Shown piece by piece: positions 17,807 to 55,104 of a stretch of 64,000 nt of DNA. The stretch covers positions 94,710 to 158,709 of the IMG/VR virus record IMGVR_UViG_3300021399_000109. One strand, given 5' to 3'. Every line of letters starts with the position of its first letter. Position 1 is the stretch's first letter. A model generated the notes under the pieces. That model saw only the letters and a list, made by a program, of their open reading frames with translations, was not told where the DNA came from and did not search any database. The stretch is from a virus. Lineage: Duplodnaviria; Heunggongvirae; Uroviricota; Caudoviricetes. The position numbers were made by a program, and so were the translations under genes.

Positions 17807-17878
17807 AGGGCTATAGCCAAGCGGTAAGGCACAGGACTTTGACTCCTGCATTCGTTGGTTCGAATCCAACTAGCCCTG
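17807..17878 (+). tRNA. tRNA-Gln (anticodon TTG)
   Basis: Cloverleaf: acceptor AGGGCTA/TAGCCCT, anticodon stem CAGGA/TCCTG with loop CTTTGAC, T-arm GTTGG-TTCGAAT-CCAAC. Confidence 0.8.
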
Positions 17879-18632
17879 TTTATAGGGTGGATTTCACATC
17901 CTTTAAGATAAACGTAGTAATACGGATAAAGCAATGACCATCCATACAGGTTGTTGCGACTTATAAAAAGAAATTTTTATGAGTTCACTGGAAAATCAAT
18001 ATGGCAGACATCCTATCTAAACCTGAGAGCCAATCGGTGTAAGGCATGGTAGGTTGGGAATCTTGAAATAGGTTCTAAATAATAATCGCAGAAATGCGTG
18101 GATTGCCAATTGCTTTTAGGTACAACTGTCGCAAACGGAAGTGCTTAACTGATTGTGATTTCATATCTTAAATCGAAAGATAGGTATTGTATTACAAATT
18201 ATACTCGCAAAGTGTAAAGGATTGCGGTGAGTGGGCTGTACTCAAAAGGTATAGATGCTCAAACGTATGCCCCGTAATTCATAAAGTGTGGAACTTCAAT
18301 GCTAATGGAGATAAGAAGATAGTGTGAGCAAAAGTGCATACGGCTTACAACTGAAAACTGACTTATTCATCTGAAATATGATGACATGTGGAACTCGCAA
18401 AGTGAAACATGAAGGAGTACAAGTAGATGCAACTCTAACAGCCTGCAAGCTGTGAATCTCGCAAGGAAGAATGTGTTGAACGGAAACTTATGAAGGTGTA
18501 AGCAGTAGTTCTGCCTGTGACCAAAGCAGGTGTCAGTTCATAGCTACAGATTAATCATCTGTGTGACTGGCTTGTTCCAACGCAAGTAAATGCTATGAAA
18601 ATAGGGTCAAAAGTCTCAGCCCTAAAATTTAA
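17879..18632 (+). ncRNA. large structured noncoding RNA candidate (GOLLD/ROOL-class ornate large RNA) between tRNA-Gln and tRNA-Glu
   Basis: About 750 nt with no plausible ORF. GC is visibly higher (about 40%) than the flanks (about 25%). Many local and long-range complementary segments. Repeated ACUCGCAAAGUG-like blocks at about 18203, 18392 and 18464. Flanked by tRNAs and downstream of tandem strong promoters, as reported for GOLLD and ROOL RNAs in phages. Confidence 0.5.
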
Positions 18633-18704
18633 GGTCGGTTAGTCAAGTGGTTAAGACACAAGGTTTTCATCCTTGGAACAGGAGTTCAATTCTCCTACCG
18701 ACTA
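18633..18704 (+). tRNA. tRNA-Glu (anticodon TTC)
   Basis: Acceptor GGTCGGT/ACCGACT, anticodon stem CAAGG/CCTTG with loop TTTTCAT, T-arm AGGAG-TTCAATT-CTCCT. Confidence 0.75.
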
Positions 18705-18757
18705 TTTTCATGTTTGGTTAAAATTAGTTTATTAATAGAGAAAGGGGAAAACAAAAC

Positions 18758-18940
18758 ATGAGTAAGAAAGAGAAAAAGCGAAAAATTAAACTTTATTTTA
18801 AAGACGGAAAAACTGATACTATTCCGCAAAAACTTTGGGATGATTATGAAGTAAATAATGACCTCTTTGTGGTTAAAAAGAATGGTGAGTGGATAGCTTT
18901 TTATAAAATGGAAACTATTGACTGCATGGTAGTCGGTTAA
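18758..18940 (+). CDS. hypothetical small protein
   Basis: RBS AGAAAGGGGAAAACAAAACATG. Lies between tRNA-Glu and the next ORF. Confidence 0.4.
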   Translation: MSKKEKKRKIKLYFKDGKTDTIPQKLWDDYEVNNDLFVVKKNGEWIAFYKMETIDCMVVG

Positions 18941-19004
18941 AATTTTAAAACAGTAAAAGTTAAATCAATTATTAATTAAATATTATCAAACAAAGGAGAA
19001 AAAA

Positions 19005-19646
19005 ATGAAAACAGAAACGATGACAGTACACGAAGCACTTTCAGAAATTAAGGTAGCAGGTAAAAGAATTACATCTACTCTTTTTGAGATGGATGTAGTA
19101 ACAGCTAATAGAAAGAATGCCACTAAAATTAACGGTATTGAACCAGAAAAGTTCAATGCACAAGCAAAGGCAGATTTTCAGTCTGTTACAGACCTTTGGG
19201 CAAGACTTACTGCCATGAAAGCGGCAATTGCTACTTACAATGCTAGTCAGAAAATTACCGTAGGTGATAAGGAATATACAATTGCAGAAGCAATTTATAT
19301 GAAAGAATATGGTATGCCCCTGAAGCAGACTTTTGTTAATACGCTGAATAAGCAGTATCAGAGTGCTGTAAATAAGGTAACAACGGAAAACTCAGACTCT
19401 AAGCTTGGTGCTACTGCTGAAAGACTTGCAACTGCAAGCTTTGGTTCTAAGGATAAGGCTGATGCTGTAGAAATGGAAAAGTTCATTACTACATATAAGG
19501 AAAATAATCAGTTTATTCTGATTGACCCTATTAATGTAAAGGCGATTATTACAGAACTTCAGTCTGAAATTGATACCTTTGAAGCTAAAGTTGATTCTGC
19601 AATTCAGATTGCAAATGCAACACATACAATTACCATTGAATATTAA
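19005..19646 (+). CDS. hypothetical protein (213 aa) inside the tRNA cluster
   Basis: RBS CAAAGGAGAAAAAAATG. Codon usage is more GC-rich than neighbouring genes. Confidence 0.55.
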   Translation: MKTETMTVHEALSEIKVAGKRITSTLFEMDVVTANRKNATKINGIEPEKFNAQAKADFQSVTDLWARLTAMKAAIATYNASQKITVGDKEYTIAEAIYMKEYGMPLKQTFVNTLNKQYQSAVNKVTTENSDSKLGATAERLATASFGSKDKADAVEMEKFITTYKENNQFILIDPINVKAIITELQSEIDTFEAKVDSAIQIANATHTITIEY

Positions 19647-20124
19647 TGGGTATTAAAATATAATAAAAAGGAAACTTTTAATATATATACCCATTAGTGA
19701 CGTAAGCCATAAATAAATGTCTCTTCTTTCTTTTTGAACGGATTAGAATGAAGTAAATAAGTTAAATAAATCCGTTAGCAAGTAAGCTTATATAGACTTA
19801 AAATCTATAAAAAGCAATGGACTTTTAATCCATTTTTACAAAAAAATTAGGGTTGTTTTGTGGTTCTTATCAAAGAAAACAGTTTAGTAATAGATTAGGA
19901 AGATAAGAATGCAAAACGTAAACTAGTTATTAATTACTTGTTATTGACTAATAATTATTGATTAAAGATTATTTATTATTTCTTTATTATTAATTATTGT
20001 CTATTTATTATGGGAACTATTTTTTTCCCATTTAATAATTATAGAATCTACGAAGAAGGTTCTGTGCTGTTAGACATTTTGTAAGCCTTGGCTTCGTCCC
20101 GTAGCAGTCACTAATGGGTATTGT

Positions 20125-20214
20125 GCTAAAGTGGCAGAGTGGTTAAATGCACCTGATTGCTAATCAGGCGGTCACAAATAATGTGGCTCATAGGTTCGAA
20201 TCCTATCTTTAGCG
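20125..20214 (+). tRNA. tRNA-Ser (anticodon GCT), class II with long variable arm
   Basis: Acceptor GCTAAAG/CTTTAGC, anticodon stem CCTGA/TCAGG with loop TTGCTAA, long variable arm, T-arm ATAGG-TTCGAAT-CCTAT. Confidence 0.8.
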
Positions 20215-20493
20215 TTACACATTTTATTTATTTAAAATGCTTATTCTACATAAAGAGTTTGTAGACGATGAATTTGGCATCGTAAAAATCTAGCACACTG
20301 TTACAGTAACAGGATAAACTAACTGAGTGGCTAGACACTTAAAACCAAACAATATAGAACAAAAATTGGAGAGGTTTTTATGAGCCTTTGTACCTGTACA
20401 AGACTTAATTTTTATCTTGAGATGAACTGAAAGCTATAGATGAAAGGGAATCAAAAATAGATTGCTTGGCATGTGCCGTTGAACATGCTAATT

Positions 20494-20567
20494 GGTCTGT
20501 TAGTTCAGTTGGTAGTAACACATGTCTGTTAAACATGGGGTCGTAGGTTCAAGTCCTACACAGACCG
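20494..20567 (+). tRNA. tRNA-Asn (anticodon GTT)
   Basis: Acceptor GGTCTGT/ACAGACC, anticodon stem CATGT/ACATG with loop CTGTTAA, T-loop TTCAAGT. Confidence 0.75.
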
Positions 20568-20726
20568 TTCCTGCTGACATTTTTAATATCTGTCAGTGTT
20601 TTGAATATTTTTGTTCATTTCCTTTCTTTGTAGGCTTGGGGAGAAGCCCCTGTAAGTAGTTGATAGTTAAACAATAACCTAAAGTAAATTAAAAAAGGCA
20701 AATATAAATAATAACAAATAATATAA

Positions 20727-20800
20727 TGGGCATTAGCACAACGGTATGAGTGCAGGTGGCTTATAACCATCCGATAAGAGTTCGACTCTCTTATGCCCGA
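20727..20800 (+). tRNA. tRNA-Ile (anticodon TAT; decodes AUA)
   Basis: Acceptor TGGGCAT/ATGCCCG, D-stem GCAC/GTGC, anticodon stem GGTGG/CCATC with loop CTTATAA (TAT at 20762-20764), T-arm AAGAG-TTCGACT-CTCTT. Confidence 0.65.
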
Positions 20801-20805
20801 TTTTA

Positions 20806-20891
20806 GCTTGTATGGCAGAGTTGGCTTAATGCACCAGTCTTGAAAACTGGCAATCCAATTGGATTCGTAGGTTCAAATCCTACTGCAAGCG
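20806..20891 (+). tRNA. tRNA-Ser (anticodon TGA), class II
   Basis: Near-paralog of the Ser(GCT) gene. Anticodon stem CCAGT/ACTGG with loop CTTGAAA, long variable arm, T-loop TTCAAAT. Confidence 0.8.
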
Positions 20892-20921
20892 TTAACTATT
20901 TTTATTTAAGAGGATGGGGAA

Positions 20922-21296
20922 ATGAAGATTAATTGGTTAAGTGAAACATTACTTACTTATGAAGAAGCAATGGAATTATTAGAGCATTCTCATAAGAAAC
21001 GCTTAGAAATGGAAGATAAAAATAAATGGGACGCATATGTAAATGATTTTACATTCTACACATTTCTTAATGATACTTATGGATATATGCTTGATGAGGT
21101 TAAAAAAGAAATTGATATTAATAAGAAAAGTTATTATCCGAAAGTAAAAGAATTATTAGATTGGGAAATATTTTTAAATAAAAGTGATAAATTAATGGAG
21201 GATATTTTAAGAGATAAACCAGAAGGAAAAGATAATATTTGGGAGATTGTAGAAGATTGGTGGAAAATGTTATTTAAATTATTATATGATTGTTAA
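20922..21296 (+). CDS. hypothetical protein (124 aa) flanked by tRNA 3' end repeats
   Basis: RBS AAGAGGATGGGGAAATG. Flanked by tRNA-Ser(TGA) 3' end and a 16-bp copy of that end. Confidence 0.5.
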   Translation: MKINWLSETLLTYEEAMELLEHSHKKRLEMEDKNKWDAYVNDFTFYTFLNDTYGYMLDEVKKEIDINKKSYYPKVKELLDWEIFLNKSDKLMEDILRDKPEGKDNIWEIVEDWWKMLFKLLYDC

Positions 21297-21351
21297 TTTA
21301 AATTATTAATTTATCTACATAGGTTCAAATCCTGTTATTTCTCATTAATTT

Positions 21352-21422
21352 AGGTTGGTAGTACAATGGTAGTACAACGGTCTCCAAAACCGAAAATAGG
21401 GGTTCGATTCCTCTCCTTCCTG
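21352..21422 (+). tRNA. tRNA-Trp-like (anticodon CCA) with imperfect acceptor stem (possible pseudo-tRNA)
   Basis: D-arm GTAC-AATGGTA-GTAC, anticodon stem ACGGT/ACCGA with loop CTCCAAA, T-arm AGGGG-TTCGATT-CCTCT. Acceptor AGGTTGG/CCTTCCT has two central U-U mismatches. Confidence 0.5.
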
Positions 21423-21585
21423 CGCCCCCAGTGATAGGAATGGGTAACTTACTCTATCCGTGTGATATTTGATTCTTTTAACTACGACAACGTAAGAATT
21501 TGGTTAATCTTTTTACTGTTTTCTACGTCAGATAAGTTCACCAAGAAAACAGTTTTTAATTTTATAAGGATAATGTTTTTTATCA

Positions 21586-21660
21586 CGGAATGTAGCAAAG
21601 TGGTTTTTCTGCACACGACTTTTAATCGTGTTTACGTGGGTTCGAATCCCACCATTCCGA
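21586..21660 (+). tRNA. tRNA-Lys (anticodon TTT)
   Basis: Acceptor CGGAATG/CATTCCG, anticodon stem CACGA/TCGTG with loop CTTTTAA, T-arm GTGGG-TTCGAAT-CCCAC. Confidence 0.8.
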
Positions 21661-21662
21661 TT

Positions 21663-21750
21663 AGCCTCATAGTATAATGGAAGACGTTTTAAGCATGTAG
21701 TACACCCTATGGTTTTTGGGAGGTGCAGGTTCGATTCCTGCTGAAGGCTG
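21663..21750 (+). pseudogene. tRNA-like element / degenerate class II tRNA (anticodon not assignable)
   Basis: Good T-arm GCAGG-TTCGATT-CCTGC and a partial acceptor (AGCCT...AGGCT). I could not fold a consistent D-arm or anticodon arm by eye. Confidence 0.3.
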
Positions 21751-21768
21751 TAAGAAAGGAATTAAAAA

Positions 21769-21975
21769 ATGAAAAAAGAAGATTTGGATAAACGTATTTA
21801 TGATGTAGAACCTAATGAGATTTGTACGATGACTTATCGTGAGTATATAGATTGGGGATATGCCGAATTAGGTTATTCAAAAAAAACGGTTGAACAAATG
21901 TTAGACTTAGATAAAATGTCGGAAGATATGTTAAATGATGTATTAGAAGAACTTGATTGGCTATTGAGCAAATAG
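21769..21975 (+). CDS. hypothetical small protein
   Basis: RBS AAGAAAGGAATTAAAAAATG. Confidence 0.4.
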   Translation: MKKEDLDKRIYDVEPNEICTMTYREYIDWGYAELGYSKKTVEQMLDLDKMSEDMLNDVLEELDWLLSK

Positions 21976-21988
21976 GTAAATATATAAA

Positions 21989-22333
21989 ATGTATTATAAA
22001 GATTTTCAAGAAAAAATAATTACAATAATAGATAATGATTATATATTAAATTATAATAATCATACTTTTGATAATAGTTTTATGGAAGTTAATTCTTATG
22101 AAATGTGGCAACATATGAATAAGGATAAACTAAAAATAATTGGAATTAGTTTTAATCCGCCTTATGGTCATTATAGTTATAAAGACGTAGCTTTTGTATT
22201 TAAAGATATAAACAATGAAATATTTTGGATACATCTTACAAGAATCAGTTGGGAACATTATGTTCTTAGTGCCTTTGGAAAAGAAGACGGAGATAAAATT
22301 ATTACTGAAATATATAATAAATATAAAGTATAA
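21989..22333 (+). CDS. hypothetical protein
   Basis: ORF follows closely after the previous gene. Confidence 0.4.
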   Translation: MYYKDFQEKIITIIDNDYILNYNNHTFDNSFMEVNSYEMWQHMNKDKLKIIGISFNPPYGHYSYKDVAFVFKDINNEIFWIHLTRISWEHYVLSAFGKEDGDKIITEIYNKYKV

Positions 22334-22355
22334 AATATAAAAGGAGATAAATGAT

Positions 22356-22583
22356 ATGGAATTTAAAAGAGACATGAGTAAAAACAAAAAGAAAGCACCG
22401 ACAGATTATAAAGTTAATGATAGAGTTTTGGTGTTAACTGGTGATAATAAAGATAAAGTTGGTGTAGTAAAAGGACATTATGATGCTAATCTTATCTTAG
22501 AATTTAAGGGGAACGATGAAATGCCGACTTATACAGATAAAGTTCATTATGCCGAAGTAATCAGATGGTTTGATTGGAGTTAA
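22356..22583 (+). CDS. hypothetical protein
   Basis: RBS AAAAGGAGATAAATGATATG. Confidence 0.45.
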   Translation: MEFKRDMSKNKKKAPTDYKVNDRVLVLTGDNKDKVGVVKGHYDANLILEFKGNDEMPTYTDKVHYAEVIRWFDWS

Positions 22584-22617
22584 GTGAAATAGATAAAAAA
22601 ATTTTTTAAAAAAAAGC

Positions 22618-22646
22618 TTGACAAATTGTTAATTATGTGTTAGTAT
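22618..22646 (+). promoter_or_regulatory. sigma70-type promoter upstream of tRNA(TAA) and the TnpB/Cas12f-like gene
   Basis: TTGACA, 17-bp spacer, TAGTAT. Followed by hairpin TGTCAGATGAAGCGAAACATCTGACA at 22654-22679. Confidence 0.55.
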
Positions 22647-22685
22647 TAATAGTGTCAGATGAAGCGAAACATCTGACAATTATAT

Positions 22686-22761
22686 GCTCCCGTAGCCCAA
22701 TTAGGCAGTAGGCACAGGACTTAAAATCCTTTCAGTATGGGTTCGAATCCCATCGGGAGTA
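22686..22761 (+). tRNA. tRNA with anticodon TAA (Leu, UUA codon) but short variable arm; discriminator A
   Basis: Acceptor GCTCCCG/CGGGAGT, anticodon stem CAGGA/TCCTT with loop CTTAAAA, T-arm ATGGG-TTCGAAT-CCCAT. Preceded by promoter 22618-22646 and a hairpin. Confidence 0.6.
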
Positions 22762-22828
22762 TTTAGCATTAAAAGAATGTATAAATTAAATGCTAATTGA
22801 ATTTATTTTTATCACACGATAAAAACAA

Positions 22829-22891: not shown

Positions 22892-24247
22892 ATGTCAAAC
22901 ACACAAATTCTAACACGTAAATTTCAGATTTTTCCAGTAGGAGACAAAGAAGAGATTAATCGAGTTTATCAGTATATTAGAGATTGTCAGTATGTACAAA
23001 ACAAAGCTTATAATATTCTTATTAGTAATGTTTATTCTGCTATTATTTCTGGTAAATCAAAAGAAGAAATTAATCTGATTTATAAAAAAGGTGGAAGAAA
23101 ACCTAAAGAGAATAATCCAGATTATAGTCTTTATAATTATAATGATTTTAAAGTACCTGTAGGATTAACAATAATAGGGGCACTTCCTCAAACAGTAAAA
23201 AATGATTTAAAAACTGCTCAAAAGGCAGGATTATTTAAAGGTAACTCTGCTTTACCTAATAGAAGAAGAACGGCTAGTTTAAATATTCAACCTATATATG
23301 TTAGATTAAGAGATATTAATTTACGTAACCCTAAAATAACTTCTAAAACTGGTATTTATCATACCTATTCTTCTTATAATGATTTTTTAGATAATTTATA
23401 TTCTAAAAGAGAATTAGATATTTATCTTGCATTTGCGAATAATATTACTTTTAAATTTGTGTTAGGAAATCCTTATAAATCCTATCAAGATAGAAATATT
23501 TTACAGCATATTTTTGAAGAAGATTATTTAGTTAAGGGAAGTTCAATCTCTTTTGATAAGACTAATAAAAAAATTATGTTAAATCTGAGTATGGAAATAC
23601 CTAAAAAAGAGATTGAATTAAAAGAGGATGTCGTAGTAGGAGTTGATGTAGGATTAGCCATTCCTGCTGTTTGTGGATTAAATATAAATTCATATGCGAG
23701 AGAATACATTGGTTCTAAGGATGATTTTTTACGAGTTAGAACACAGATTTCTAATGAATGTAAAAGAGTTCAGAAGAATTTAAAAATGATTAAAGGTGGT
23801 CATGGACGTAAGAAAAAAATGAAACCTTTAGATAGATTCAGATTAAAAGAAAAAAATTTTGTTCAGACCTACAATCATATGGTCAGTAAACGTGTTGTTG
23901 ACTTTGCCGTAAAAAATCATGCAAAATATATTAATCTAGAAAATCTTAAAGGATATGATGCCAATATATTTATTTTAAGAAATTGGTCATATCATCAGCT
24001 TCAGCGGTATATTAAATACAAAGCTGAAAAATACGGAATAGAAACAAGAATGATTGACCCTTATCATACATCTCAGATTTGTTCTTGCTGTGGTCATTGG
24101 GAAGAAGGTCAAAGAATTAACCAATCAACTTTTATTTGTAAAAATCCTGAATGTAAAAATTTTGGAATAAAAATAAACGCTGATTTTAATGCTTCAAGGA
24201 ATATAGCATTATCTACAAATTTTATATCTGCCGATTCTGCCGAATAA
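22892..24247 (+). CDS. compact RNA-guided-nuclease-like protein (TnpB/Cas12f-like, 451 aa) with split RuvC and zinc finger
   Basis: RuvC-I VVVGVDVGLAIP. RuvC-II YINLENL. Zinc finger CSCCGHWEEGQRINQSTFICKNPEC. RuvC-III INADFNASRNIA. RBS AAAGAAAGGAGCAATATG. A CRISPR-like array lies 185 bp downstream. Confidence 0.8.
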   Translation: MSNTQILTRKFQIFPVGDKEEINRVYQYIRDCQYVQNKAYNILISNVYSAIISGKSKEEINLIYKKGGRKPKENNPDYSLYNYNDFKVPVGLTIIGALPQTVKNDLKTAQKAGLFKGNSALPNRRRTASLNIQPIYVRLRDINLRNPKITSKTGIYHTYSSYNDFLDNLYSKRELDIYLAFANNITFKFVLGNPYKSYQDRNILQHIFEEDYLVKGSSISFDKTNKKIMLNLSMEIPKKEIELKEDVVVGVDVGLAIPAVCGLNINSYAREYIGSKDDFLRVRTQISNECKRVQKNLKMIKGGHGRKKKMKPLDRFRLKEKNFVQTYNHMVSKRVVDFAVKNHAKYINLENLKGYDANIFILRNWSYHQLQRYIKYKAEKYGIETRMIDPYHTSQICSCCGHWEEGQRINQSTFICKNPECKNFGIKINADFNASRNIALSTNFISADSAE

Positions 24248-37697: not shown

Positions 37698-40205
37698 ATG
37701 AGTTACATTGGGATACATAATCATACGGATATTGGTAGTAATCATGAGTTCCGTGATTCAATTAATAAAGTAAAAGATTTAATTGATTATGCACATTCGC
37801 TTGGACATAAGGGTATTTGCATAACTGACCATGAATCTTTATCTGCTCATTTTAAAGCTTTAGATTATTATGAATCTAAAATGGGCGAAGAAGATTGGAA
37901 AGATTTTAAAATTGGATTAGGAAATGAAATTTATTTATGTCCTGATTTTGTTACAGCAGAAAATATAGGGAATAATTTTTATCCCCACTTTATTTTAATT
38001 GCTCTTGATGCTTTTGGGCATAAAGGATTACGTGAATTAAGTACAAAAGCATGGACTGAAAATTGTTTTTATTCTAAATGGAATAGAGTTCCTACTTATT
38101 ATAATGATTTGGCTGAAATGTTAGATGTGTATAGAGGACATATTATTGGGTCAACAGCCTGTCTTGGGTCTAGCATTAATAGACAATTACTTCAATATAA
38201 AGAAAATCCTTCAGAAGATATAGTTGTGCGTATTCGTCAATGGTTAGCATTTATGGTTGATATTTTTGGAGAAGAAAATTTCTTTATTGAACTTCAGCCC
38301 AATCCTAGTGAAGAACAGGTTTTTTGTAATCAAAAATTACTTGAATTTGCACAGGAATATAATCTTCCTTATATTATTTCTACTGATGCACACTATCTTA
38401 AAAAAGAAGATAGAGCAATTCATAAGGCTTATATTACAGCAAACAAAGAAGATGACAGAGAAGTGGATTATTTTTATCAGACTACTTATGTAATGTCAGA
38501 AGAAGAAATTCATTCTTATATGGATGGGTATTTAGGCTATGATATTGTCCAAAAAGGTATTGATAATACAATGCTTATTTATGATAGACTTGAATATTAC
38601 TCCATGAAAAAGGATTTGGAAATTCCTTTTCTTCCGCTTGATAGAACTGAACCTGATAAAAAATTAATAGATAAATATAGTAAACATATTCCTTTATTAC
38701 GAGAATTTGCTGAATCTGAATACGAATCTGATAGACATATGATTCGTGAAATGCTCAAAGGTATTGAAAAAGATGAAGTATATCAAACAGAAAGAGGATA
38801 TAACGCTACCAATGAATGTTTATCTTATATAAAACAATCTTCTGAAAAAATGGGAGTTAGATGGTCAGCATATCTTGACCAAATGGCAGATTACGTTAAT
38901 ATTATTTGGGATTGCGGTAGTGTTGTAGCTGTAGGTCGTGGTTCTGTTATTGGTTTTTGTATTGCTAATCAAATGGGAATCACACAGATTAATCCTTTAA
39001 GAGAAAATACAGCTACATTTCCTTGGAGATTCTTAAATCCAGAACGGGCAAGTATACTTGATATTGATACAGATGTTAATCCTATTTTTAGAGATAAGAT
39101 TATAAATAGATTTAAAGAAATTTATGGTGCTGATAAAGTATCCAAAGTTCTTACTTATTCTACTGAAAAAAGTAGGAGTGCTATATTAACGGCAGGTCGT
39201 GGTATTGGACTTGATAATGATTTAACTTCTTATATTGCTTCTTTGGTAGTGTTTGATAGAGGTAATCCTCGTTCATTAAAAACAATGTACTATGGTGACG
39301 AAGATAACAAACCTGTTCAAGAGTTTGTCAATGAAATGAATGAGCATCCTGACCTTTGGGAAACTGCCCAAAAACTGGAAGGTCTTTGTTCAGGTATTGG
39401 TTCTCATGCAGGTGGGGTTATTATTTGTGATAAATCGTTAATTGATACTTGTGCGTTAATTCGAACTAAATCTGGGGATGTAATTACTCAATATGACCTC
39501 CATGAAGATGAAGCAATGAGTCTTATCAAGATTGACCTCTTAGCTACTAATGCAGTATCTAAGATTCAAGAGTGTCTGGAACTGTTATTAGATAAAAGTA
39601 AGATTGAATGGCAAGGTAGTCTTCGTGATACATATGAAAAATATATTGGTGTATATAATCTTGAAAGATATGCTGAAGATATGTGGAAATTGTTATGGGA
39701 ACATAAAGTTATTAGTGCTTTCCAAATGGAAAAAGAATCAGGAAAACAAGCATTAGCTTTAGTTAAACCACATTCTGTAGATGACTTAGCGACTATTAAT
39801 TCTGTTATACGACTTATGCCGCAGGAAAAAGGGGCTGAAACTCCATTAAGTAAATTTGCAAGATTCCATGAAGATATTACCGAATGGTATCAAGAAATGA
39901 CAGATTATGGATTAACAGAAGAGGAACAGAATATTCTTAAAAATATTATTGGTGTTTCGTATGGTATTTGCGAAGCACAAGAATATTTAGTTCTTTTAAC
40001 AACACATCCTGATATAGGTGGTTTTAGTTTATCTTGGGCAGACTCTTTACGTAAAGCTGTTGCAAAAAAGAATCCTAAAGCATTTGATGAATTAGAAAAA
40101 CAGTTTTTTGAAAATGCGGTTGAAAAAGGATTAAGTAAGAATTTAGTTAATTATGTTTGGAATGTATTAATTAAAACTCAGCGTGGGTACGGGTTAAATC
40201 TTTAA
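37698..40205 (+). CDS. dnaE: DNA polymerase III alpha-type (DnaE-like) polymerase, N-terminal portion (PHP, palm, fingers), interrupted
   Basis: PHP motifs GIHNHTDIGS...H. The ORF ends ...QRGYGLNL* inside the conserved GYxFNKSH region. The continuation is at 41326. Confidence 0.8.
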   Translation: MSYIGIHNHTDIGSNHEFRDSINKVKDLIDYAHSLGHKGICITDHESLSAHFKALDYYESKMGEEDWKDFKIGLGNEIYLCPDFVTAENIGNNFYPHFILIALDAFGHKGLRELSTKAWTENCFYSKWNRVPTYYNDLAEMLDVYRGHIIGSTACLGSSINRQLLQYKENPSEDIVVRIRQWLAFMVDIFGEENFFIELQPNPSEEQVFCNQKLLEFAQEYNLPYIISTDAHYLKKEDRAIHKAYITANKEDDREVDYFYQTTYVMSEEEIHSYMDGYLGYDIVQKGIDNTMLIYDRLEYYSMKKDLEIPFLPLDRTEPDKKLIDKYSKHIPLLREFAESEYESDRHMIREMLKGIEKDEVYQTERGYNATNECLSYIKQSSEKMGVRWSAYLDQMADYVNIIWDCGSVVAVGRGSVIGFCIANQMGITQINPLRENTATFPWRFLNPERASILDIDTDVNPIFRDKIINRFKEIYGADKVSKVLTYSTEKSRSAILTAGRGIGLDNDLTSYIASLVVFDRGNPRSLKTMYYGDEDNKPVQEFVNEMNEHPDLWETAQKLEGLCSGIGSHAGGVIICDKSLIDTCALIRTKSGDVITQYDLHEDEAMSLIKIDLLATNAVSKIQECLELLLDKSKIEWQGSLRDTYEKYIGVYNLERYAEDMWKLLWEHKVISAFQMEKESGKQALALVKPHSVDDLATINSVIRLMPQEKGAETPLSKFARFHEDITEWYQEMTDYGLTEEEQNILKNIIGVSYGICEAQEYLVLLTTHPDIGGFSLSWADSLRKAVAKKNPKAFDELEKQFFENAVEKGLSKNLVNYVWNVLIKTQRGYGLNL

Positions 40206-41343
40206 TTAGACCCTCTTATACAGTAATGTATATTAAAAAACTCTTTAAATTGCGGGAAACTCCTTAGAGCATTAGTAACCAAGTTTAATTAGTAATAATT
40301 AAATGGCAAATAGTAATGTATTTGGTAAGGTAACAGCACTAATGATTGGACAATCCGCATCAAAATCTCTCAAACAAATTGTATAGAAATGGAGGGAAAA
40401 TGGGATGTAAAAGATTAAGTGATGAAGACGAAAAAAAACTTGTGGACGAATATTTAAAAGGTGTTGCTGTTAAACAATTAATGATTAAATATGGTTTTGC
40501 AAGTAAAAAGTCTATAATAGATAAAGTAAAGAAGTATTATCCAAATTATAAAGAGATGTTAGAACAGGCTAAAGAAAATCGAAAAACATATTCATTAGAT
40601 TTATCAAAAATTGATAGTCCATTTAATGCGTATCTTATTGGATTATTATTAACAGATGGCTATATTATTGATAATAATAAATTTGGTTTGCAATTAACAG
40701 ATGAAGATTGTATTCGATTTATTTCTGAAGCAACTAATAATCCATATTATTCGTATAAAACAAAAGAATATAAAACAGAATATAGAATTGTATTTAGTGG
40801 CTCTCAATATATTGAGCAATTAAAAAGATATAATATTACTGCGAAAAAATCATATACTGTTAAAGGATTTGATTTTTATGAGGACGAAATTAAATATATC
40901 CCTTTTTTAATTCGTGGAATTATTGATGGGGACGGATGTATTCATAAAACTACTAAAGGAAGTGTAAGTTTTTATATTTGTTCAATGTCTTATGACTTTA
41001 TTTTATGGATACAAGAAATATTGGAAAAACGGTTTTTTATGGAAGATACTCATATAAAACAAAGTAATATAAATAATATTTGGATAGTTGAAACTTCTTT
41101 ACAAACTAATATTTTTAAATTAATGGCAATTGTTTATGACAGACCTTATGGTATGTCTCGTAAATATAATTGTTTGAGAGAGATGTTCAGAGACTATAAT
41201 AAGAGTAACCAACAAAATTTTATTTGGAATGATGTTGGTTAATGGTATAGTCCAGACCGCAACCTTAACAGGGCTTGGGAAACCAAGTGCGGTAAAGTAA
41301 TAAGTCCCATACACTTGCTTATTCAATGATTCTTTTGCAAGAA
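40203..41343 (+). mobile_element. 1.14-kb insertion carrying a LAGLIDADG homing-endonuclease gene (group I intron-like or free-standing HEG cassette) splitting dnaE; flanked by 9-bp direct repeat TTAAATCTT
   Basis: TTAAATCTT at 40194-40202 and 41344-41352. Removing the segment plus one repeat copy restores an in-frame ...RGYGLNLNYRWNPIYWQTANL... The flanks are GC-richer and structured (paired segments AATTGCGGG/CCGCAT and ACCGCA...TGCGGT, TAGTCC after the HEG). Confidence 0.6.
40400..41242 (+). CDS. LAGLIDADG homing endonuclease (two-motif type)
   Basis: Two LAGLIDADG motifs, AYLIGLLLTDGYI and FLIRGIIDGDGCI. RBS-like AATGGAGGGAAAATGGGATG. Confidence 0.75.
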   Translation: MGCKRLSDEDEKKLVDEYLKGVAVKQLMIKYGFASKKSIIDKVKKYYPNYKEMLEQAKENRKTYSLDLSKIDSPFNAYLIGLLLTDGYIIDNNKFGLQLTDEDCIRFISEATNNPYYSYKTKEYKTEYRIVFSGSQYIEQLKRYNITAKKSYTVKGFDFYEDEIKYIPFLIRGIIDGDGCIHKTTKGSVSFYICSMSYDFILWIQEILEKRFFMEDTHIKQSNINNIWIVETSLQTNIFKLMAIVYDRPYGMSRKYNCLREMFRDYNKSNQQNFIWNDVG

Positions 41344-42720
41344 TTAAATCTTAATTATAGATGGAATCCTATTTATTGGCAAACAGCTAATCTTATTGTA
41401 GATTCTGGTTCGTTGGACAATAATTCAAATGATGCTACAGATTATGGCAAGATAGGTATTGCGATTGCAAATATTAAAAAAGAAAATGTTAATATTGAAA
41501 TTCCATTAATTAATGAAGCAGGATTTGGTTTTGAACCCGATGAAAATAATAACAGAATTATTTTTGGCTTAAAAGCAATAAATGGAATCAACACTGAAAT
41601 TTCACAAGCAATTATTCAAAACCGTCCATATAGTTCCATGGAAGATTTTGCAAGTAAACTTTTAGATACTGGAATTATTAAAAATGCTCAAATGATTAAA
41701 CTAATTAAAGCAGGTTGTTTTACTGAACTTCATAGTCCTAATAAAGAGATTACAATGGAATGGTATTTAAGAAATTATAAATATAATCCACTTAAAAAAT
41801 TAACACTAAGTCAGTTACCTGCTTTAAGAGAGAAAAAACTTATTCCAGAAGCTTTTGACAAGTGTGTCAAGATATTAATTTTAAAAGATTACATCTTAGA
41901 CGATGAAGGATTTTATGCTAATTATATTGACCCTAATAAGAAACCTTTAAAACGTGGTTATCATGATAGATATTATATTTTAGATGATAATAGTCAACCT
42001 ATTTTTAAAGATTATTTTTCTGAGAATTGTATAGTTGGAGTACAAGGGGAATATTTTTTAGTTTCAGAAAAACAGATTGATAAAGAAGCCAAAGTATTTA
42101 TAGAACCTTTCAGAGAGTGGATGAATAGTGCTGATGCTATTAATAGATATAATTTAAGTTGTTTCTTAGATGTATGGGAACAATATGCAAGTGGAAATAA
42201 AGCACATTGGTCTATGGAGTCTTTGACTTATTATGACGAAGAACACGAATTAGAAAATGTAAACGAATCTTTATATGGAATAGTTAACTTCTTTGATTTA
42301 CCTGAAGAACCTGTAGCGTATGATTGGTATACAAGATGGATTAACGGTGAAAGAAAAGTATTTCCTAAATATAATATTAGTCGTATAGCAGGTACAGTGA
42401 TTAATGCAGATAATAATCATCATATGGTATCTTTATTAACTAAATATGGATTAGTTAATGTAAAAATGAATAAAGGACATTATGCCTTTTATAATAAACA
42501 GATTTCTCAAATTGATGAAGATAATAAAAATAAAAAACATAAAATAGAAGATAGTTGGCTTAAACGTGGTCAGATGATTATTGTTTCTGGCATTAGAATG
42601 GGGGATACTTTTTATCCCAGAATTTATAATGATACAATTTATAAACATACAGTTAGTTTAATTAAAGAAGTTAATAAAAATGGAACTTTATTATTACAAA
42701 ATGAAAGGACAAAAATATAA
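41326..42720 (+). CDS. dnaE: DnaE-like polymerase, C-terminal portion
   Basis: Begins MILLQELNLNYRWNPIYWQTANL, which overlaps the LNL at the end of the N-portion and matches the ...AYALxAYQTAYLK region of PolIII alpha. Confidence 0.7.
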   Translation: MILLQELNLNYRWNPIYWQTANLIVDSGSLDNNSNDATDYGKIGIAIANIKKENVNIEIPLINEAGFGFEPDENNNRIIFGLKAINGINTEISQAIIQNRPYSSMEDFASKLLDTGIIKNAQMIKLIKAGCFTELHSPNKEITMEWYLRNYKYNPLKKLTLSQLPALREKKLIPEAFDKCVKILILKDYILDDEGFYANYIDPNKKPLKRGYHDRYYILDDNSQPIFKDYFSENCIVGVQGEYFLVSEKQIDKEAKVFIEPFREWMNSADAINRYNLSCFLDVWEQYASGNKAHWSMESLTYYDEEHELENVNESLYGIVNFFDLPEEPVAYDWYTRWINGERKVFPKYNISRIAGTVINADNNHHMVSLLTKYGLVNVKMNKGHYAFYNKQISQIDEDNKNKKHKIEDSWLKRGQMIIVSGIRMGDTFYPRIYNDTIYKHTVSLIKEVNKNGTLLLQNERTKI

Positions 42721-45053: not shown

Positions 45054-45095
45054 TAATATTATACACAACAATATATGGTAGTTAAAGGAGATAAT

Positions 45096-45701
45096 ATGAA
45101 AACGATATTTAATGCTTTTATTGATGATTGGACAAGGGTGAAGAATCATTGTCGTACTACTGATAATAAGGATTTTACAGAAAAAGAAGCCACAGATACT
45201 TTTAAAAAGAAACTTCTTATTTCTGAGCATAGTCCTATTAGACTTCTTGAATTTGATTGGTCTTGGAAAGGGATTCCTTATTGGGTAGCTACGCATTGGG
45301 TTAGACATAAATTTGAAAAATTCCAATCAACGCAAAGAACGGATAGAACAGGACATGATAGGTCGAAGAACCCACAAGATGAACCTGTTAATCTTGATGG
45401 GTATGCTAACATGCAAAATCTTATTGATGCTTGGAGAAAACGTCTTTGTTATTGTGCTAGTCCAGAGACAAGAGAATATGCAGAAGATTTCAAAATTAAA
45501 TTACATGAAACACATCCTGAAGAAGCTAACGTTTTAGTTCCTAATTGTATTTATAGATGTGGTTGTCCAGAATTTAAAACATGTGGTTATTTTGAAAATT
45601 TTTGGTGTGACTATTCAGTTTTTGAATTAACTGATATTCAAGCAAGGTATGATGCTTATAATCAAGATTTTTATTCTAAACATGAAACAACAGAATCTTA
45701 A
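45096..45701 (+). CDS. thyX: ThyX-like (flavin-dependent thymidylate synthase family) protein
   Basis: SEHSPIRLLEFDWSW...THWVRHKFEKFQSTQRT aligns by eye with the ThyX core [36 protein letters not shown] (RHR becomes RHK). Confidence 0.5.
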   Translation: MKTIFNAFIDDWTRVKNHCRTTDNKDFTEKEATDTFKKKLLISEHSPIRLLEFDWSWKGIPYWVATHWVRHKFEKFQSTQRTDRTGHDRSKNPQDEPVNLDGYANMQNLIDAWRKRLCYCASPETREYAEDFKIKLHETHPEEANVLVPNCIYRCGCPEFKTCGYFENFWCDYSVFELTDIQARYDAYNQDFYSKHETTES

Positions 45702-45821
45702 TATAAAAAAATAATGGACAATGGAAAAGATTTACTTTTAATAATTAGTATAGTAACTATATATCAAATTATACAAACTATACGAAATATTACAAGAACT
45801 TATATAATAAAGGAGAATTAA

Positions 45822-46127
45822 ATGGATAATAAATTTATTATACCTTATTTTAGGGCTAAAGCTTTAAACAAAGATTACTATGTTGAAGGATTTTATATGG
45901 CTTATCCAGATACAACTTATTGTTTCATTGAAGACTATATTAGGTCTCCTGTAAAAATTATACATTGTATAGTTAATCATCGAATGACTGATTGGGGATT
46001 GCCTAATGAATCAAGAATTATTGAAATAGATATTGATACATTAGAACAAATAGGTTATTTTGATTCTCAAAGAAAAGTATATAAAGATGAACCTTGGATA
46101 GAATTAATTAGTACAAAGGAGAGTTAA
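45822..46127 (+). CDS. hypothetical protein
   Basis: RBS AAAGGAGAATTAAATG. Confidence 0.45.
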   Translation: MDNKFIIPYFRAKALNKDYYVEGFYMAYPDTTYCFIEDYIRSPVKIIHCIVNHRMTDWGLPNESRIIEIDIDTLEQIGYFDSQRKVYKDEPWIELISTKES

Positions 46128-46128
46128 A

Positions 46129-46356
46129 ATGAGTTATAATGGAATATATTGTTGCACAAAAGATAAAAATAATTGTCCTAAAAAGGATACTTGTTATAGA
46201 TACAATAATCCTGATAATAATCCTTGTGCGACTTTATATAAAGTAGCTTGTACAGAAGAAAATGGTCGTTTATTGTATAAAGAATTTTTATGTGCAAAAA
46301 ACGATATTAAAAGTGAAGAAGAAAGTGAGGTGAATAAGGTATCAAATGAAGGTTGA
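46129..46356 (+). CDS. hypothetical Cys-rich small protein
   Basis: Eight Cys in 75 aa. Confidence 0.4.
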   Translation: MSYNGIYCCTKDKNNCPKKDTCYRYNNPDNNPCATLYKVACTEENGRLLYKEFLCAKNDIKSEEESEVNKVSNEG

Positions 46357-46696
46357 TTATTCAAAAAGACCCATAAATTTAGATATGAAAATGGTCAAAA
46401 AAGGCACTGACGAGTATGATTACTACCAATCTAACTATGAAGATGTTAGATTACCTGATGCAATTTATCTTGGTGAATGTGAAACAGAATCTGAAGCATG
46501 GGATTTATTAAAAAAATATTTAGAAGATAATGGGAAAAGGTGTCCTTACTATTATCGTTGTAATTATTATGGCAATTTAATTGAAATTGATTATGGCAGT
46601 TGGACATATTTTGCTTATATATATGATTTACCAGAAGATAAAAAAGAATTAATTAAACTTAATAAAGAAATTTTTAGTTCATACATAGAGGAGTAA
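46346..46696 (+). CDS. hypothetical protein
   Basis: Overlapping start. ORF of uniform composition. Confidence 0.4.
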   Translation: MKVDYSKRPINLDMKMVKKGTDEYDYYQSNYEDVRLPDAIYLGECETESEAWDLLKKYLEDNGKRCPYYYRCNYYGNLIEIDYGSWTYFAYIYDLPEDKKELIKLNKEIFSSYIEE

Positions 46697-46699
46697 AAG

Positions 46700-47002
46700 A
46701 TGTTAGCATATAATTTAAATGATTTAAGTAATGTAAAACCTTTAGTTGATATTTGTGAAAAATATAAACCTTACTTTAATGTAGATATTATTCATGGACA
46801 TTATGTGGTTGATGGTTGTAGTTATTTGGGGATTTGTTCAATGTGTCCCAATATTGTTTCTATTGTGCCTGTTCTTCCAGAAATTATTGATGAAGGAACA
46901 AGAACTAAATATTTTCAATTTAATCAAGAAATAATGAAATTGGGTAGAGAAAGTCATGAATCTAATTGGGCGGAGAAAGTCATGAGTCTAAGGAGCGTCT
47001 AA
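46700..47002 (+). CDS. hypothetical protein
   Basis: RBS AGAGGAGTAAAAGATG. Confidence 0.4.
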   Translation: MLAYNLNDLSNVKPLVDICEKYKPYFNVDIIHGHYVVDGCSYLGICSMCPNIVSIVPVLPEIIDEGTRTKYFQFNQEIMKLGRESHESNWAEKVMSLRSV

Positions 47003-47017
47003 GGAGTAAGATAAGAT

Positions 47018-47605
47018 ATGTTATTAATTATTGGTGGAAAATCTGGTTCTGGAAAAGATAGTATTGTTAAAGAATTTGAGAAAAATGGTTGGAAAAAAAT
47101 TATTAAATACACTAATAGACCTAAAAGAGAGGGCGAAATTGATGGAGTAGATTATCATTTCGTATCCACTGAACTTATGGAAATAATACCTTTTATTTTT
47201 AAACAATCTTTTGTAGTAGCAAATGGTGATACATGGTATTATGGTTTTCCTATGGAACACATAATACTTCCCGATAATAAAAATGATAAATATATAACAA
47301 TTATGACTCCATTTGAATATAATAGTTTTCTTAATATGACAAAGGAGTTTAAAATAATAGGAAAAGATTTTATTTCCGTACAGATTGATATTCCAGATAA
47401 CATACGAAGAGAGCGTTTAATTAAGCGTGGAGATAATATAGAAGAAATTAATAGAAGAATTAAAGCAGATAACAAAGATTTTGAAGGATGGGAACTAAAA
47501 CATAGAAAAGAAAGTCAATTTCCTTTATTTTATATTCGTGATGGAATAGGAGATAGAACTCCTGAAGATATATATAATACAATTATTAAAATGATGGAAT
47601 CATAG
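47018..47605 (+). CDS. P-loop nucleotide (dNMP/guanylate-type) kinase
   Basis: N-terminal P-loop LLIIGGKSGSGKDS. About 195 aa. Sits in the nucleotide-metabolism module. Confidence 0.5.
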   Translation: MLLIIGGKSGSGKDSIVKEFEKNGWKKIIKYTNRPKREGEIDGVDYHFVSTELMEIIPFIFKQSFVVANGDTWYYGFPMEHIILPDNKNDKYITIMTPFEYNSFLNMTKEFKIIGKDFISVQIDIPDNIRRERLIKRGDNIEEINRRIKADNKDFEGWELKHRKESQFPLFYIRDGIGDRTPEDIYNTIIKMMES

Positions 47606-47618
47606 AAAGGAGTTACAT

Positions 47619-47834
47619 ATGGATGTAGTTTTATATTCAACAGATGGATGCCCTAAATGTAATGAAATAAAAAAGGGACTCGATAAAAAGAAAATTGATT
47701 ATATTCTTATTCATGGGGAAGAAGCTGAGAATGAAGTAATTAAAATGGGATATAATTCAATGCCTATTTTAAAAGTAGATGATAGAATTATGAAATATCC
47801 AGAAGCTTATAACTGGTTAAGAAAAGAGGTTTGA
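47619..47834 (+). CDS. nrdH: NrdH/glutaredoxin-like redoxin
   Basis: CPKC active site near the N-terminus of a 71-aa protein, immediately upstream of nrdD. Confidence 0.6.
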   Translation: MDVVLYSTDGCPKCNEIKKGLDKKKIDYILIHGEEAENEVIKMGYNSMPILKVDDRIMKYPEAYNWLRKEV

Positions 47835-47835
47835 T

Positions 47836-55103: not shown

Positions 55104-55104
55104 T

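Follow-up and report, generated by a model that had tools for sequence, protein, structure and literature searches.

We analysed a segment free of open reading frames (ORFs) in a 64,000-nt stretch of DNA from a tailed phage (Caudoviricetes; IMG/VR record IMGVR_UViG_3300021399_000109, positions 94,710 to 158,709). This whole stretch is referred to below as the window, and its first letter is position 1. The segment lies between a gene for a 213-aa protein (19005–19646, + strand), which has conserved homologues and precedes the RNA described here, and a tRNA-Ser(GCU) gene (20124–20215, + strand; its start is called at 20124 or 20125). We are confident that positions 19687–20121 (+) constitute a structured non-coding RNA gene of about 435 nt. 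The element, divergent and unannotated, belongs to a large family of phage and prophage RNAs; all that had been catalogued of this family before was a 5′ portion of 86 nt, the RAGATH-27 motif (RF03100). Our favoured explanation, to which we assign as a whole a probability of about 0.6, is that the element is an RNA of this family that displays mimics of tRNA anticodon arms in a variable insert. The full architecture and the recurrent mimicry of anticodon loops appear to be undescribed in searchable sources, and the searchable literature yielded no published text on RAGATH-27 or on phage RNAs that mimic anticodons. Related loci that were compared with the window element are designated by L-numbers (L001 and so on).

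Architecture and distribution of the RNA

An earlier note, made from the window sequence, had described direct and inverted repeats at the borders of the segment and had offered three readings of what lies between them: decoys for anticodon nucleases, parts of a structured RNA, or an insertion resembling a miniature inverted-repeat transposable element (MITE). The inverted copy that it placed at 19687 is real. ATACCCATTAGTGAC (19687–19701) is perfectly complementary over 15 bp to GTCACTAATGGGTAT (20107–20121), 405 nt away, and because a 15-mer inverted repeat with up to two mismatches is expected only 0.11 times by chance, and because this one covaries in relatives, we take it to be beyond chance. 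The segment also folds far better than shuffled versions of itself (z = −6.15). Its interior is AT-rich and repeat-rich, and its description as ORF-free is borne out, with no ORF of 30 aa or more overlapping 19647–20156 on either strand. The 11-nt direct repeat, TAATGGGTATT, exists as well, at 19644–19654 (it starts 3 nt upstream of the 19647 that had been noted) and at 20112–20122, but no significance can be attached to it. The same 11 nt recur exactly at 32012, within a coding ORF; the upstream copy, which overlaps the TAA stop of ORF 19005–19646, is missing from L006, L001 and L002 despite the presence of the element; and L006 carries TAATGAATATT at that site together with a terminal helix identical to that of the window. 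The direct repeat is a chance feature of this window.

A search of cultured-phage DNA returned no close match to the element, and the upstream 213-aa protein was therefore used as a search handle. Exact DNA-pattern scans gave only two viral loci and seven loci from metagenome collections, whereas searches with the neighbouring protein were far richer. One of the pattern loci (L026:4500–5060) was a chance match of a 20-mer pattern to tandem repeats of GGTAATC/TTATTAC between which a GGTGACCGAAAAAATCTGTGGGAAAACCAAAATA unit recurs, and is unrelated to the element. Close homologues of the 213-aa protein (79–95% identity) occur on rumen metagenome contigs, and nhmmer located the whole element directly 3′ of the gene in every close relative. 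A protein-profile scan added homologues of 26–47% identity from 80 viral and 31 genome loci, mostly in phages of 100–170 kb from gut and rumen samples, together with Clostridia genomes. Iterated nhmmer profiles of the two ends identified the 5′ domain in 109 of 144 loci, where it begins 15–50 nt past the 213-aa gene, and both domains in 103. The two domains are collinear and always on the + strand, and the 103 loci hold 82 unique sequences with lengths of 270–460 nt. Most loci have tRNA arrays flanking the element, and the gene itself usually lies within the array.

The arms of the inverted repeat form a helix, P1 (5′ strand 19687–19701, which is the ‘inverted copy' of the earlier note, and 3′ strand 20107–20121, overlapping the second copy of TAATGGGTATT; both +). 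P1 comprises 12–17 bp in nearly every unique element and is built from dozens of different sequences. Its 5′ strand ends directly before a GAAAAC-type motif, and its 3′ strand starts 2 nt past a conserved ‘...CNNNGG-CU'. Within a narrow-clade alignment of 12 copies, compensatory substitutions convert the pair ATACCCATTAGTGAC/GTCACTAATGGGTAT into TGGCCCATTAATGAC/GTCATTAATGGGCTA and ATGCCCATTAATAAC/GTTATTAATGGGCAT. The motif that follows P1 in the window, GUAAGCCA (19702–19709, +), is a clade variant of the GAAAACC motif of the family, and its AAGCCA (19704–19709) is the 5′ strand of a second helix, P2. The 3′ strand of P2, TGGCTT (20089–20094), is held in the 3′ domain (20048–20104, +), which is enclosed by helix P5 (CTACG 20048–20052 with CGTAG 20100–20104). 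The same arrangement is apparent in the consensus of wide alignments, in which AAAAUC-CNNNG pairs with CNNNG-GCUG to form P5 and the GAAAACCAY strand pairs with an RUGGUU strand in the P5 loop, so that P2 crosses P5.

Two further stems form an H-type pseudoknot. In stem S1 (19723–19753, +) CTTCTTT (19723–19729) pairs with AATGAAG (19747–19753), with a recurrent U-U mismatch, and the loop contains the 5′ strand of stem S2 (19737–19776, +), in which AACGGATT (19737–19744) pairs with AATCCGTT (19769–19776). An A-rich third strand (19754–19768) runs between the 3′ strand of S1 and the 3′ strand of S2. A different pairing of the 3′ domain, proposed by RNAalifold for the narrow clade (AAUCU/AGGUU and GCUGU/AUAGC), proved to be a mis-pairing, since the wide alignment shows P5 as CUACG/CGUAG.

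Covariation supports these helices in two structure-blind data sets. On profile-derived columns, 93% of P1 cells are canonical, with 4.7 pair types per position; the figure is 100% for P5 and 85% for S1 (with the one recurrent U-U), and controls with slid partners reach 31–52%. P1 contains 110 G-U cells and 17 A-C cells, an excess of G-U that identifies the + strand as the functional one and speaks for an RNA, not DNA, as the functional molecule. The second set is a MAFFT alignment of 39 diverse composites, each joining a 5′ and a 3′ part. Here 89.9% of cells are paired, compared with 62.5% after shuffling and 37–44% with slid partners, and the covariation score of 0.769 (0.228 in the control) was reached by none of 500 shuffles. 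Paired cells amount to 94.2% for P1, 83.7% for P2, 77.7% for S1, which reaches about 40% with slid partners, and 100% for P5, and changes on both sides affect 14 of the 15 pairs of P1, all seven of S1 and three of the five of P5. P2 forms a stem with a mean of 5.4 bp with its own partner and 3.8 bp with swapped partners, its register being shifted by 1 nt in the window clade; the corresponding values for S2 are 7.6 and 5.6 bp, and S2 also has covarying pairs within the window clade. The reading as parts of a structured RNA is thereby strongly supported, the inverted repeat acting as the P1 helix of an RNA of about 435 nt that is conserved and covaries.

The core and a repeat tract (described below) are the most strongly conserved parts of the element. 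The one deletion variant that we found, L007 (L007:3297–3576, compared with L006:3643–4081), has lost about 160 nt internally, and with them the pseudoknot and the anticodon-like hairpin; a P1 of 10 bp and the 3′ half remain, and the variant was found in at least two samples. We found no empty site among the close relatives, and the only difference in presence or absence, which the earlier note had proposed to compare for the segment between its repeats, is this internal deletion with P1 retained. The note had also let the segment end exactly at the start of tRNA-Ser, which is true of the window clade, where the tRNA starts 2 nt past P1, but not in general, as a tRNA lies 5 nt or less from the end in just 13 of the 82 unique elements. 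In Lactococcus phage 949, Bacillus phage Deep Blue, Brevibacillus phage Jenst, L022, L023 and L113 an intrinsic terminator takes the place of the tRNA, and these terminators argue that the element is a discrete RNA.

The identity of the 5′ domain emerged from comparison with the covariance models of Rfam. At gathering thresholds, tRNAs are the only Rfam matches in the window. In a permissive search of 800 nt, window positions 19690–19777 align with RAGATH-27 at 27.7 bits (E = 0.17). Two relatives exceed the gathering threshold of 76.1 bits, namely L131 (Ruminococcus sp. AM36-2AA; 92.9 bits) and L117 (81.4 bits), and nine more give sub-threshold matches (62.5, 59.3, 56.6, 51.1, 47.9, 47.1, 43.4, 42.7 bits and lower). 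The matches always fall at the position of the P1 5′ strand, the GAAAAC motif and the pseudoknot. As the model matches the same site in relatives, twice above threshold, we equate the 5′ domain of the RNA with RAGATH-27. The window is connected to these relatives by the same iterated nhmmer profiles, by position, by the neighbouring gene and by P1, P2, S1, S2 and P5. The components of the RAGATH-27 consensus, a CGAAAAC strand, a hairpin and an A-rich ‘GUAAA...AAAGAA', are present in the window as CGUAAGCC, the hairpin AACGGAUU/AAUCCGUU and GUAAAUAAGUUAAAUAA; CGUAAGCC is a clade variant, and L006 and L001 carry CGAAAGCC. The 86-nt model thus covers the P1 5′ strand, the CGAAAAC strand, the S2 hairpin and the A-rich strand. 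It differs from the RNA described here in stopping after about 86 nt with a single hairpin (S2), in leaving the P1 and P2 5′ strands out of any helix, and in being without S1, the variable insert, the repeat tract and the entire 3′ domain. The 3′ domain itself has no match in Rfam.

The family extends to cultured phages. The 213-aa protein is encoded by T5-like phages of Salmonella and E. coli, Bastille-like phages of Bacillus, phage G, the Lactococcus 949 group and Brevibacillus phage Jenst, and an unannotated gap of 440–620 nt follows the gene in the four cultured-phage records that were inspected. Neither the RAGATH-27 model of Rfam nor our nhmmer profiles match the cultured-phage loci, and given the lack of a RAGATH-27 match the link required a covariance model of the 3′ domain, R1, which was built solely from metagenome sequences and metagenome-assembled genomes. 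R1 has a single match in the window, at 20041–20108. It finds the 3′ domain in cultured phages at the expected position and strand, with E-values that are rough owing to a shortened calibration: 1e-10 in Lactococcus phage 949, 1e-8 in Deep Blue, 2e-8 in Jenst, 2e-6 in each of the T5-like phages Th1, polluks and EPS7, 3e-6 in Salmonella phage 41 and 6e-6 in the T5-like phage BF23. Manual parses of these loci recovered P1, S1, S2 and P5. In Th1, for example, P1 is CTAGTAAATCGGTAGAC/GTTTATCGGTTTACTAG, S1 is CCTCG/CGAGG, S2 is CAGCGGT/ACCGCTG and P5 is CCTAG/CTAGG, and the P1, S2 and P5 helices of Salmonella phage 41 differ from these in a compensatory manner. About 440 T5-like records contain the Th1 stretch at an identity of 90% or more, hardly ever with an annotation. 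By these sequence comparisons, the family is represented in phages of rumen and gut, in prophages of Clostridia, and in the Lactococcus 949 group, Bastille-like phages, Jenst and T5-like coliphages.

The gene that accompanies the RNA is itself widespread. Homologues of the 213-aa protein are present on more than 456 viral contigs, on 31 genome contigs and in 688 cultured GenBank phage records, and the gene precedes the RNA in nearly every locus in which the 5′ domain was found. The protein is predicted to be a helical bundle (pLDDT 92.8), a fold shared with uncharacterised proteins of several phages; it has no Pfam family above threshold and no sequence or fold match in the PDB. The label ‘tail fiber' (phrog_1491) stems from automated annotation only and is unsupported. 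In L022 the pair of gene and RNA lies among FtsH-, NAD-dependent DNA ligase-, DUF5722- and AIM24-like genes with no tRNA nearby; the setting is either outside an island, or possibly chromosomal, or that of a large phage.

The remaining parts of the window element are less uniform. Between the stop codon of the 213-aa gene and the RNA there is a spacer (19647–19686, +) that contains most of the upstream copy of TAATGGGTATT and a sigma-70-like TTGAAT-17-TATAAT match. Single-sequence folding for minimum free energy prefers, in the window, an alternative ‘anti-P1' hairpin between this repeat copy and P1. In the family at large the spacer is no more complementary to P1 than the control (the longest stem averages 6.2 versus 5.7 nt), neither the repeat copy nor the hairpin is conserved, and the candidate was dropped. 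Downstream of the anticodon-like hairpins is a clade-specific variable region (19848–19924, +), of low conservation and in part missing from the L002 clade, for which single-sequence folding alone predicts a long imperfect hairpin. It is followed by an AT-rich tract of short TTATTRAYTA-type repeats (19925–20011, +), which is near-invariant in the clade and includes a promoter-like TTGACT-17-GATTAT match, and by a variable hairpin, GGGAA-(loop)-TTCCC (20012–20029, +), which an insertion has expanded in L001 and L019 and which the L002 clade lacks. Most other clades, including those of T5-like and Bacillus phages, have a repeat tract at the equivalent place, made of five to nine YNAAAG copies spaced about 8–14 nt apart (for comparison, L145:2340–2430, L146:2325–2410, L147:2360–2450 and L059:3700–3800). 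Such clade-specific repeat tracts could be binding sites for some protein.

Anticodon-like hairpins in the variable insert

Just past the pseudoknot, the element contains a variable insert in which two hairpins resemble the anticodon arms of tRNAs. The earlier note gave their coordinates exactly: H1, TATAGA-CTTAAAA-TCTATA, occupies 19791–19809 (+), and H2, AATGGA-CTTTTAA-TCCATT, occupies 19816–19834 (+). As it had stated, the H1 loop (CUUAAAA) and the H2 loop (CUUUUAA) are identical at seven of seven positions to the anticodon loops of the window's own tRNA-Leu(UAA) and tRNA-Lys(UUU), respectively; the stems differ from those of the two tRNAs. Both loops fit the anticodon frame of tRNAs, Y32 U33 NNN R37 A38. 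It was also right that other tRNA arms are lacking, as neither ARAGORN nor the Rfam tRNA model finds a tRNA within 19647–20123, where only the anticodon-arm-like hairpins are present.

The loops change identity between close relatives. At the position of H1 the loop is CUUAAAA (Leu-UAA) in the window, AUUUGGA in L001, L019, L027 and L029, CUCCAAA (the loop of a phage tRNA-Trp) in L014, L017, L020 and L021, and CUCCCGA in L002, L005, L015 and L018; L030 and L031 have a loop of 8–9 nt, and H1 is absent in L006. The H2 loop CUUUUAA (Lys) occurs in seven sequences and is unchanged in L006, L019, L027 and L029–L031, while L001 has CUUGAAA, the loop of tRNA-Ser(UGA). The distant relative L022 keeps the H2 loop with a compensatory change of the stem from AATGGA/TCCATT to GTGGA/TCCAC, and the window and L006 differ at 93 positions elsewhere and at none in the H2 loop. 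The near-identical L001 and L029 differ at 2 of 7 loop positions and at 4 of 447 positions elsewhere (p = 0.003). The retention of exact loops while stems covary and flanks diverge, together with the excess of loop changes in this last pair, suggests that the loop is under selection. Since UUAAAA and UUUUAA are complementary in the window, we considered a kissing interaction between H1 and H2; it fails in relatives such as L019, L029, L030 and L031, and the complementarity is probably a coincidence.

Distant relatives present other anticodon loops at the same place. Those recognized are Ser-UGA, Leu-UAA, Lys-UUU, Asn-GUU, Ile-GAU, Ile-UAU, Ser-GCU, Tyr-GUA, Met-CAU, Leu-CAA, Gln-UUG and Pro-UGG. 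T5-like phages display Lys loops, Lys-UUU in Th1 and Lys-CUU in EPS7. Across the family at least 14 tRNA identities are copied. We compared hairpins with a stem of at least 5 bp and a 7-nt loop that are not part of a tRNA against a reference set of 98 anticodon loops, taken from 588 tRNAs in the same loci. Among distinct hairpins of the insert, 19 of 175 carry a real anticodon loop, as opposed to 120 of 9,710 in the background (odds ratio 9.7, p = 4e-12). When only loops in the Y-U-NNN-R-A frame are considered, 19–21 of 23 in the insert are real anticodon loops, versus 59 of 333 in the background. At the level of whole elements, 46 of 79 unique ones (58%) have at least one hairpin with an anticodon loop, a proportion that is 5.5% in size-matched control windows and 4.7% in shuffles. 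The idea of anticodon-stem-loop decoys thus stands as far as the resemblance of the loops is concerned, which is statistically real, family-wide and variable in tRNA identity; that they act as decoys goes beyond this result.

In some relatives the insert carries more than an arm. A complete tRNA, about 126–145 nt from the GAAAAC motif, lies inside it in L115 (Leu-CAA) and in L086 and L087 (Gly-GCC). These embedded tRNA genes recall the tRNAs that GOLLD linkers sometimes hold. In L117:3240–3400, within a bona fide RAGATH-27 element, a permuted module composed of a T arm, a closed acceptor stem and a D arm follows a long hairpin that has the anticodon loop of Ser-UGA; the module gives a weak match to YrlA (39 bits, E = 5e-5).

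Interpretation and alternatives

We propose the following model. The RNA is probably co-transcribed with the upstream 213-aa gene, and in the window phage its 3′ end would probably be produced by the cut that RNase P makes at the 5′ end of tRNA-Ser, a terminator taking this role in other members. The stable core would act as a scaffold on which anticodon-arm mimics, and in some relatives whole tRNAs or a YrlA-like mimic, are displayed, and the displayed arms would engage a factor that reads anticodon loops. The likeliest such factor may be a host defence nuclease that targets tRNAs and that is distracted or inhibited by the RNA; a tRNA-modifying enzyme is the alternative. A decoy or tRNA-mimic mechanism of this general type is a tentative proposal, with chances well short of even. 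A more specific version, in which a programmable display scaffold decoys or inhibits tRNA-cleaving immunity of the host (PrrC/RloC-type nucleases, PARIS, collateral cleavage by Cas13, VapC-like toxins) and the displayed ‘anticodon' switches between relatives as the arms race moves, is rather unlikely as formulated. The decoy idea would nevertheless fit, by analogy, the known roles of phage tRNA islands and the switching identities. In the same phage, window positions 50659–52020 (+) encode an Rnl2-family RNA ligase (PF09414, 34.2 bits; phrog_968), a circumstantial observation that may relate to tRNA repair; no polynucleotide kinase-phosphatase was recognized among the 10 ORFs scanned in 45075–57086.

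Several points weigh against the favoured explanation. About 40% of the family members are without an anticodon-like hairpin, and mimicry therefore cannot be the core function of the family. All mimicked loops are A/U-rich (A or U at position 36, A at position 37), which is partly a matter of base composition, and because the sequences are phylogenetically related, the Fisher tests given above overstate independence. The window scores below the gathering threshold of RAGATH-27 when searched with the Rfam covariance model (27.7 versus 76.1 bits), and its placement in a RAGATH-27-type family rests on transitive homology and shared architecture. A further helix in the 3′ domain, P6, was 48% paired on profile columns and is not claimed. 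We infer expression of the RNA and the position of its ends from sequence features, and the promoter-like match in the invariant AT-rich tract implies that part of the conservation may act at the DNA level. With a pI of 5.6 the 213-aa protein is acidic, and its fold is not one known to bind RNA. Finally, no anticodon nuclease has been identified in the hosts, which are not known.

The alternative that survives best accepts the same RNA family and regards the hairpins as by-products: the insert would be a hot spot at which tRNAs land, leaving decaying or tolerated remnants, and the function would lie in the core and the repeat tract, for example in ROOL- or GOLLD-like self-assembly or as a sponge for a repeat-binding protein. 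We consider it somewhat improbable, though it deserves to be taken seriously. It accounts readily for the whole tRNAs at this site in L115, L086 and L087 and for the permuted tRNA-like module of L117, for the roughly 40% of elements that have no hairpin, for the survival of L007 in at least two samples despite the loss of its whole 5′ region, and for the finding that core and repeat tract are conserved most strongly. GOLLD and ROOL, moreover, are found in tRNA islands, and GOLLD linkers sometimes contain tRNAs (PMC12286853, PMC5737381). Against it, the stems of the hairpins are unlike the anticodon stems of the matching tRNAs, with no remaining tRNA arms beside them. Loops also persist at seven of seven positions despite covarying stems and diverging flanks, which points to selection on the loop, and switches of the loop land on other valid anticodon loops.

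Reading the element as cis-acting, either as a structured 3′ untranslated region of the 213-aa mRNA or as a leader for processing or transcription of the tRNA array with the AT-rich tract as its promoter, is improbable. The strict spacing of 15–50 nt past the gene would suit such a role, as would the end of P1 2 nt before tRNA-Ser in the window clade and the TTGACT-17-GATTAT match within the invariant tract. Only 13 of 82 elements abut a tRNA, however, and several have a terminator of their own. An RNA of 300–450 nt with two pseudoknots, maintained from phages of Enterobacteria to those of Clostridia, goes far beyond the needs of a stabiliser, and transcripts started at an internal promoter would not include the 5′ strands of P1, P2 and the pseudoknot, although these strands covary with their 3′ partners.

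RAGATH motifs were first collected near genes associated with self-cleaving ribozymes, and a ribozyme, for instance one that cleaves itself to free the RNA from the upstream mRNA, must be weighed for this reason. The pseudoknotted fold and the invariant junction nucleotides (GAAAAC after P1, AAAUC before P5 and GGCUG after P5) speak in its favour. Against this, no ribozyme family of Rfam matches at E ≤ 10, no evidence of cleavage was found, and in its size and its variable insert the element does not resemble small self-cleaving ribozymes; we regard this reading as very improbable.

A DNA-level element, be it a MITE-like transposon with a target-site duplication or a site of replication or packaging, can be dismissed: the 15-bp inverted repeat with its 11-bp flanking direct repeat, the short, non-coding, AT-rich and repeat-rich interior and a TnpB gene about 2.8 kb downstream give this window the look of a MITE, but relatives with the element do not have the direct repeat, each genome has a single copy, always at the same syntenic site (a single R1 match, and no further copy of the 15-mer arm in the window), the arms covary as an RNA helix with G-U tolerated on the + strand only, five separate helices covary, and no empty site was found among close relatives. 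The MITE-like insertion of the earlier note has accordingly been abandoned.

Genomic setting and relation to known systems

The phage tRNA islands that surround the element contain other unusual features, which we record as separate observations. In the window, an ORF for a 451-aa TnpB-type protein (22892–24247, +; Cas12f1-like TNB domain of Pfam, 67.6 bits; PHROG ‘transposase') lies within the island, about 130 nt past tRNA-Leu(UAA). A tRNA-Ile with the unusual anticodon UAU is encoded at 20727–20800 and also occurs in the arrays of L001, L002, L006 and L014. At L027:1793–1865 there is a tRNA with a CUA anticodon, called ‘Pyl' by ARAGORN, which is possibly an amber suppressor, and L023:945–1027, between the 213-aa gene and the element, holds a tRNA-like gene with a four-nucleotide anticodon call, gcga (42.5 bits with the Rfam tRNA model).

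Other RNA motifs occur in the same islands. In Jenst (L147) a skipping-rope RNA (67.6 bits; 2134–2211) separates the 213-aa gene from the element, and a BsrG-like RNA (119 bits; 2669–2943) closely follows the element; a skipping-rope RNA is also present in the tRNA island of L050 (L050:4562–4641). RAGATH-36 RNAs are found at L097:799–928 (135.7 bits) and L124:1428–1560 (84.6 bits), about 1–2 kb upstream of the gene, and with RAGATH-36 beside the element in the same tRNA islands, several orphan RNA motifs evidently cluster there. Related islands further include a group I intron match at L103:994–1264 (102 bits), two that fall just below threshold at L037:4227–4436 (49.7 bits) and L055:3645–3852 (44.6 bits), and a near-threshold match to an HDV-like ribozyme at L055:4529–4585 (41.4 versus 44 bits). 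Farther away in the window, the DNA polymerase gene (37698–42720) is apparently split into ORFs at 37698–40205 and 41326–42720, about 1.1 kb apart, which may reflect an intein, an intron or an inserted gene.

Within the window we found no match to tmRNA, RNase P, group I intron, 6S, ROOL, GOLLD or retron RNA. Nor does the element have the adjacent reverse transcriptase gene of a retron, its neighbours being tRNAs downstream and, upstream, a helical protein without a Pfam domain above threshold. The protein-RNA anti-CRISPR AcrIIIA1 (PMC11662646) was considered as a relative and judged to be unrelated.

The function of the GOLLD- and ROOL-type RNAs of phage tRNA islands has been open for more than 10 years. 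Against that background, the present analysis extends a little-noticed Rfam motif of 86 nt to a complete RNA of about 300–450 nt, with a doubly pseudoknotted core and a tie to one phage gene, and the insert that repeatedly copies anticodon loops or carries tRNAs or their mimics leads to a concrete, tRNA-centred hypothesis. If true, it would describe an RNA-based form of anti-defence complementary to the tRNA arrays of phages. Because the family reaches tractable phages (BF23 and other T5-like phages, 949 and Deep Blue), the hypothesis is directly testable.

ROOL (RF03087) and GOLLD (RF01998) are the closest functional analogues. Both are large structured RNAs of phages and prophages that typically lie in a tRNA island or next to one, and GOLLD combines a conserved part with a variable linker that sometimes holds tRNAs (PMC5737381, PMC12286853). 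The window element shares the tRNA-island setting, with nine tRNAs in 17807–22762, and its conserved core likewise flanks a variable insert with tRNA-like modules. It differs in its length, 270–460 nt across the family as against about 580 and 800 nt, and in its strict link to the 213-aa gene. The covariance models of ROOL and GOLLD gave no match at gathering threshold in the window, at E ≤ 10 in 19500–20300, or in 44 related loci. The bacterial Y RNAs, such as YrlA (RF02553), offer a second comparison, since they too are modular and have a stem of the 5′ and 3′ ends that carries a tRNA-like module. Y RNAs, however, mimic the elbow and acceptor of tRNA and not the anticodon loop, and their partner is Rsr (Ro). 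The window itself has no YrlA match and no tRNA-like module, and no Rsr gene was seen.

The proposed display of anticodon loops has its own precedents. In the operator of E. coli thrS, a hairpin that copies an anticodon loop engages a protein that normally reads tRNA. Phage tRNA islands, for their part, confront defences that cleave tRNAs: the tRNA-Lys of T5 counters PARIS (PMC11464382), and T4 counters the anticodon nuclease PrrC (PMC1484252). The T5-like members of the family described here likewise display a loop of the Lys type. Those systems make use of an mRNA operator or of complete tRNAs, whereas the present family would employ a large, dedicated RNA in which the identity of the copied anticodon varies.

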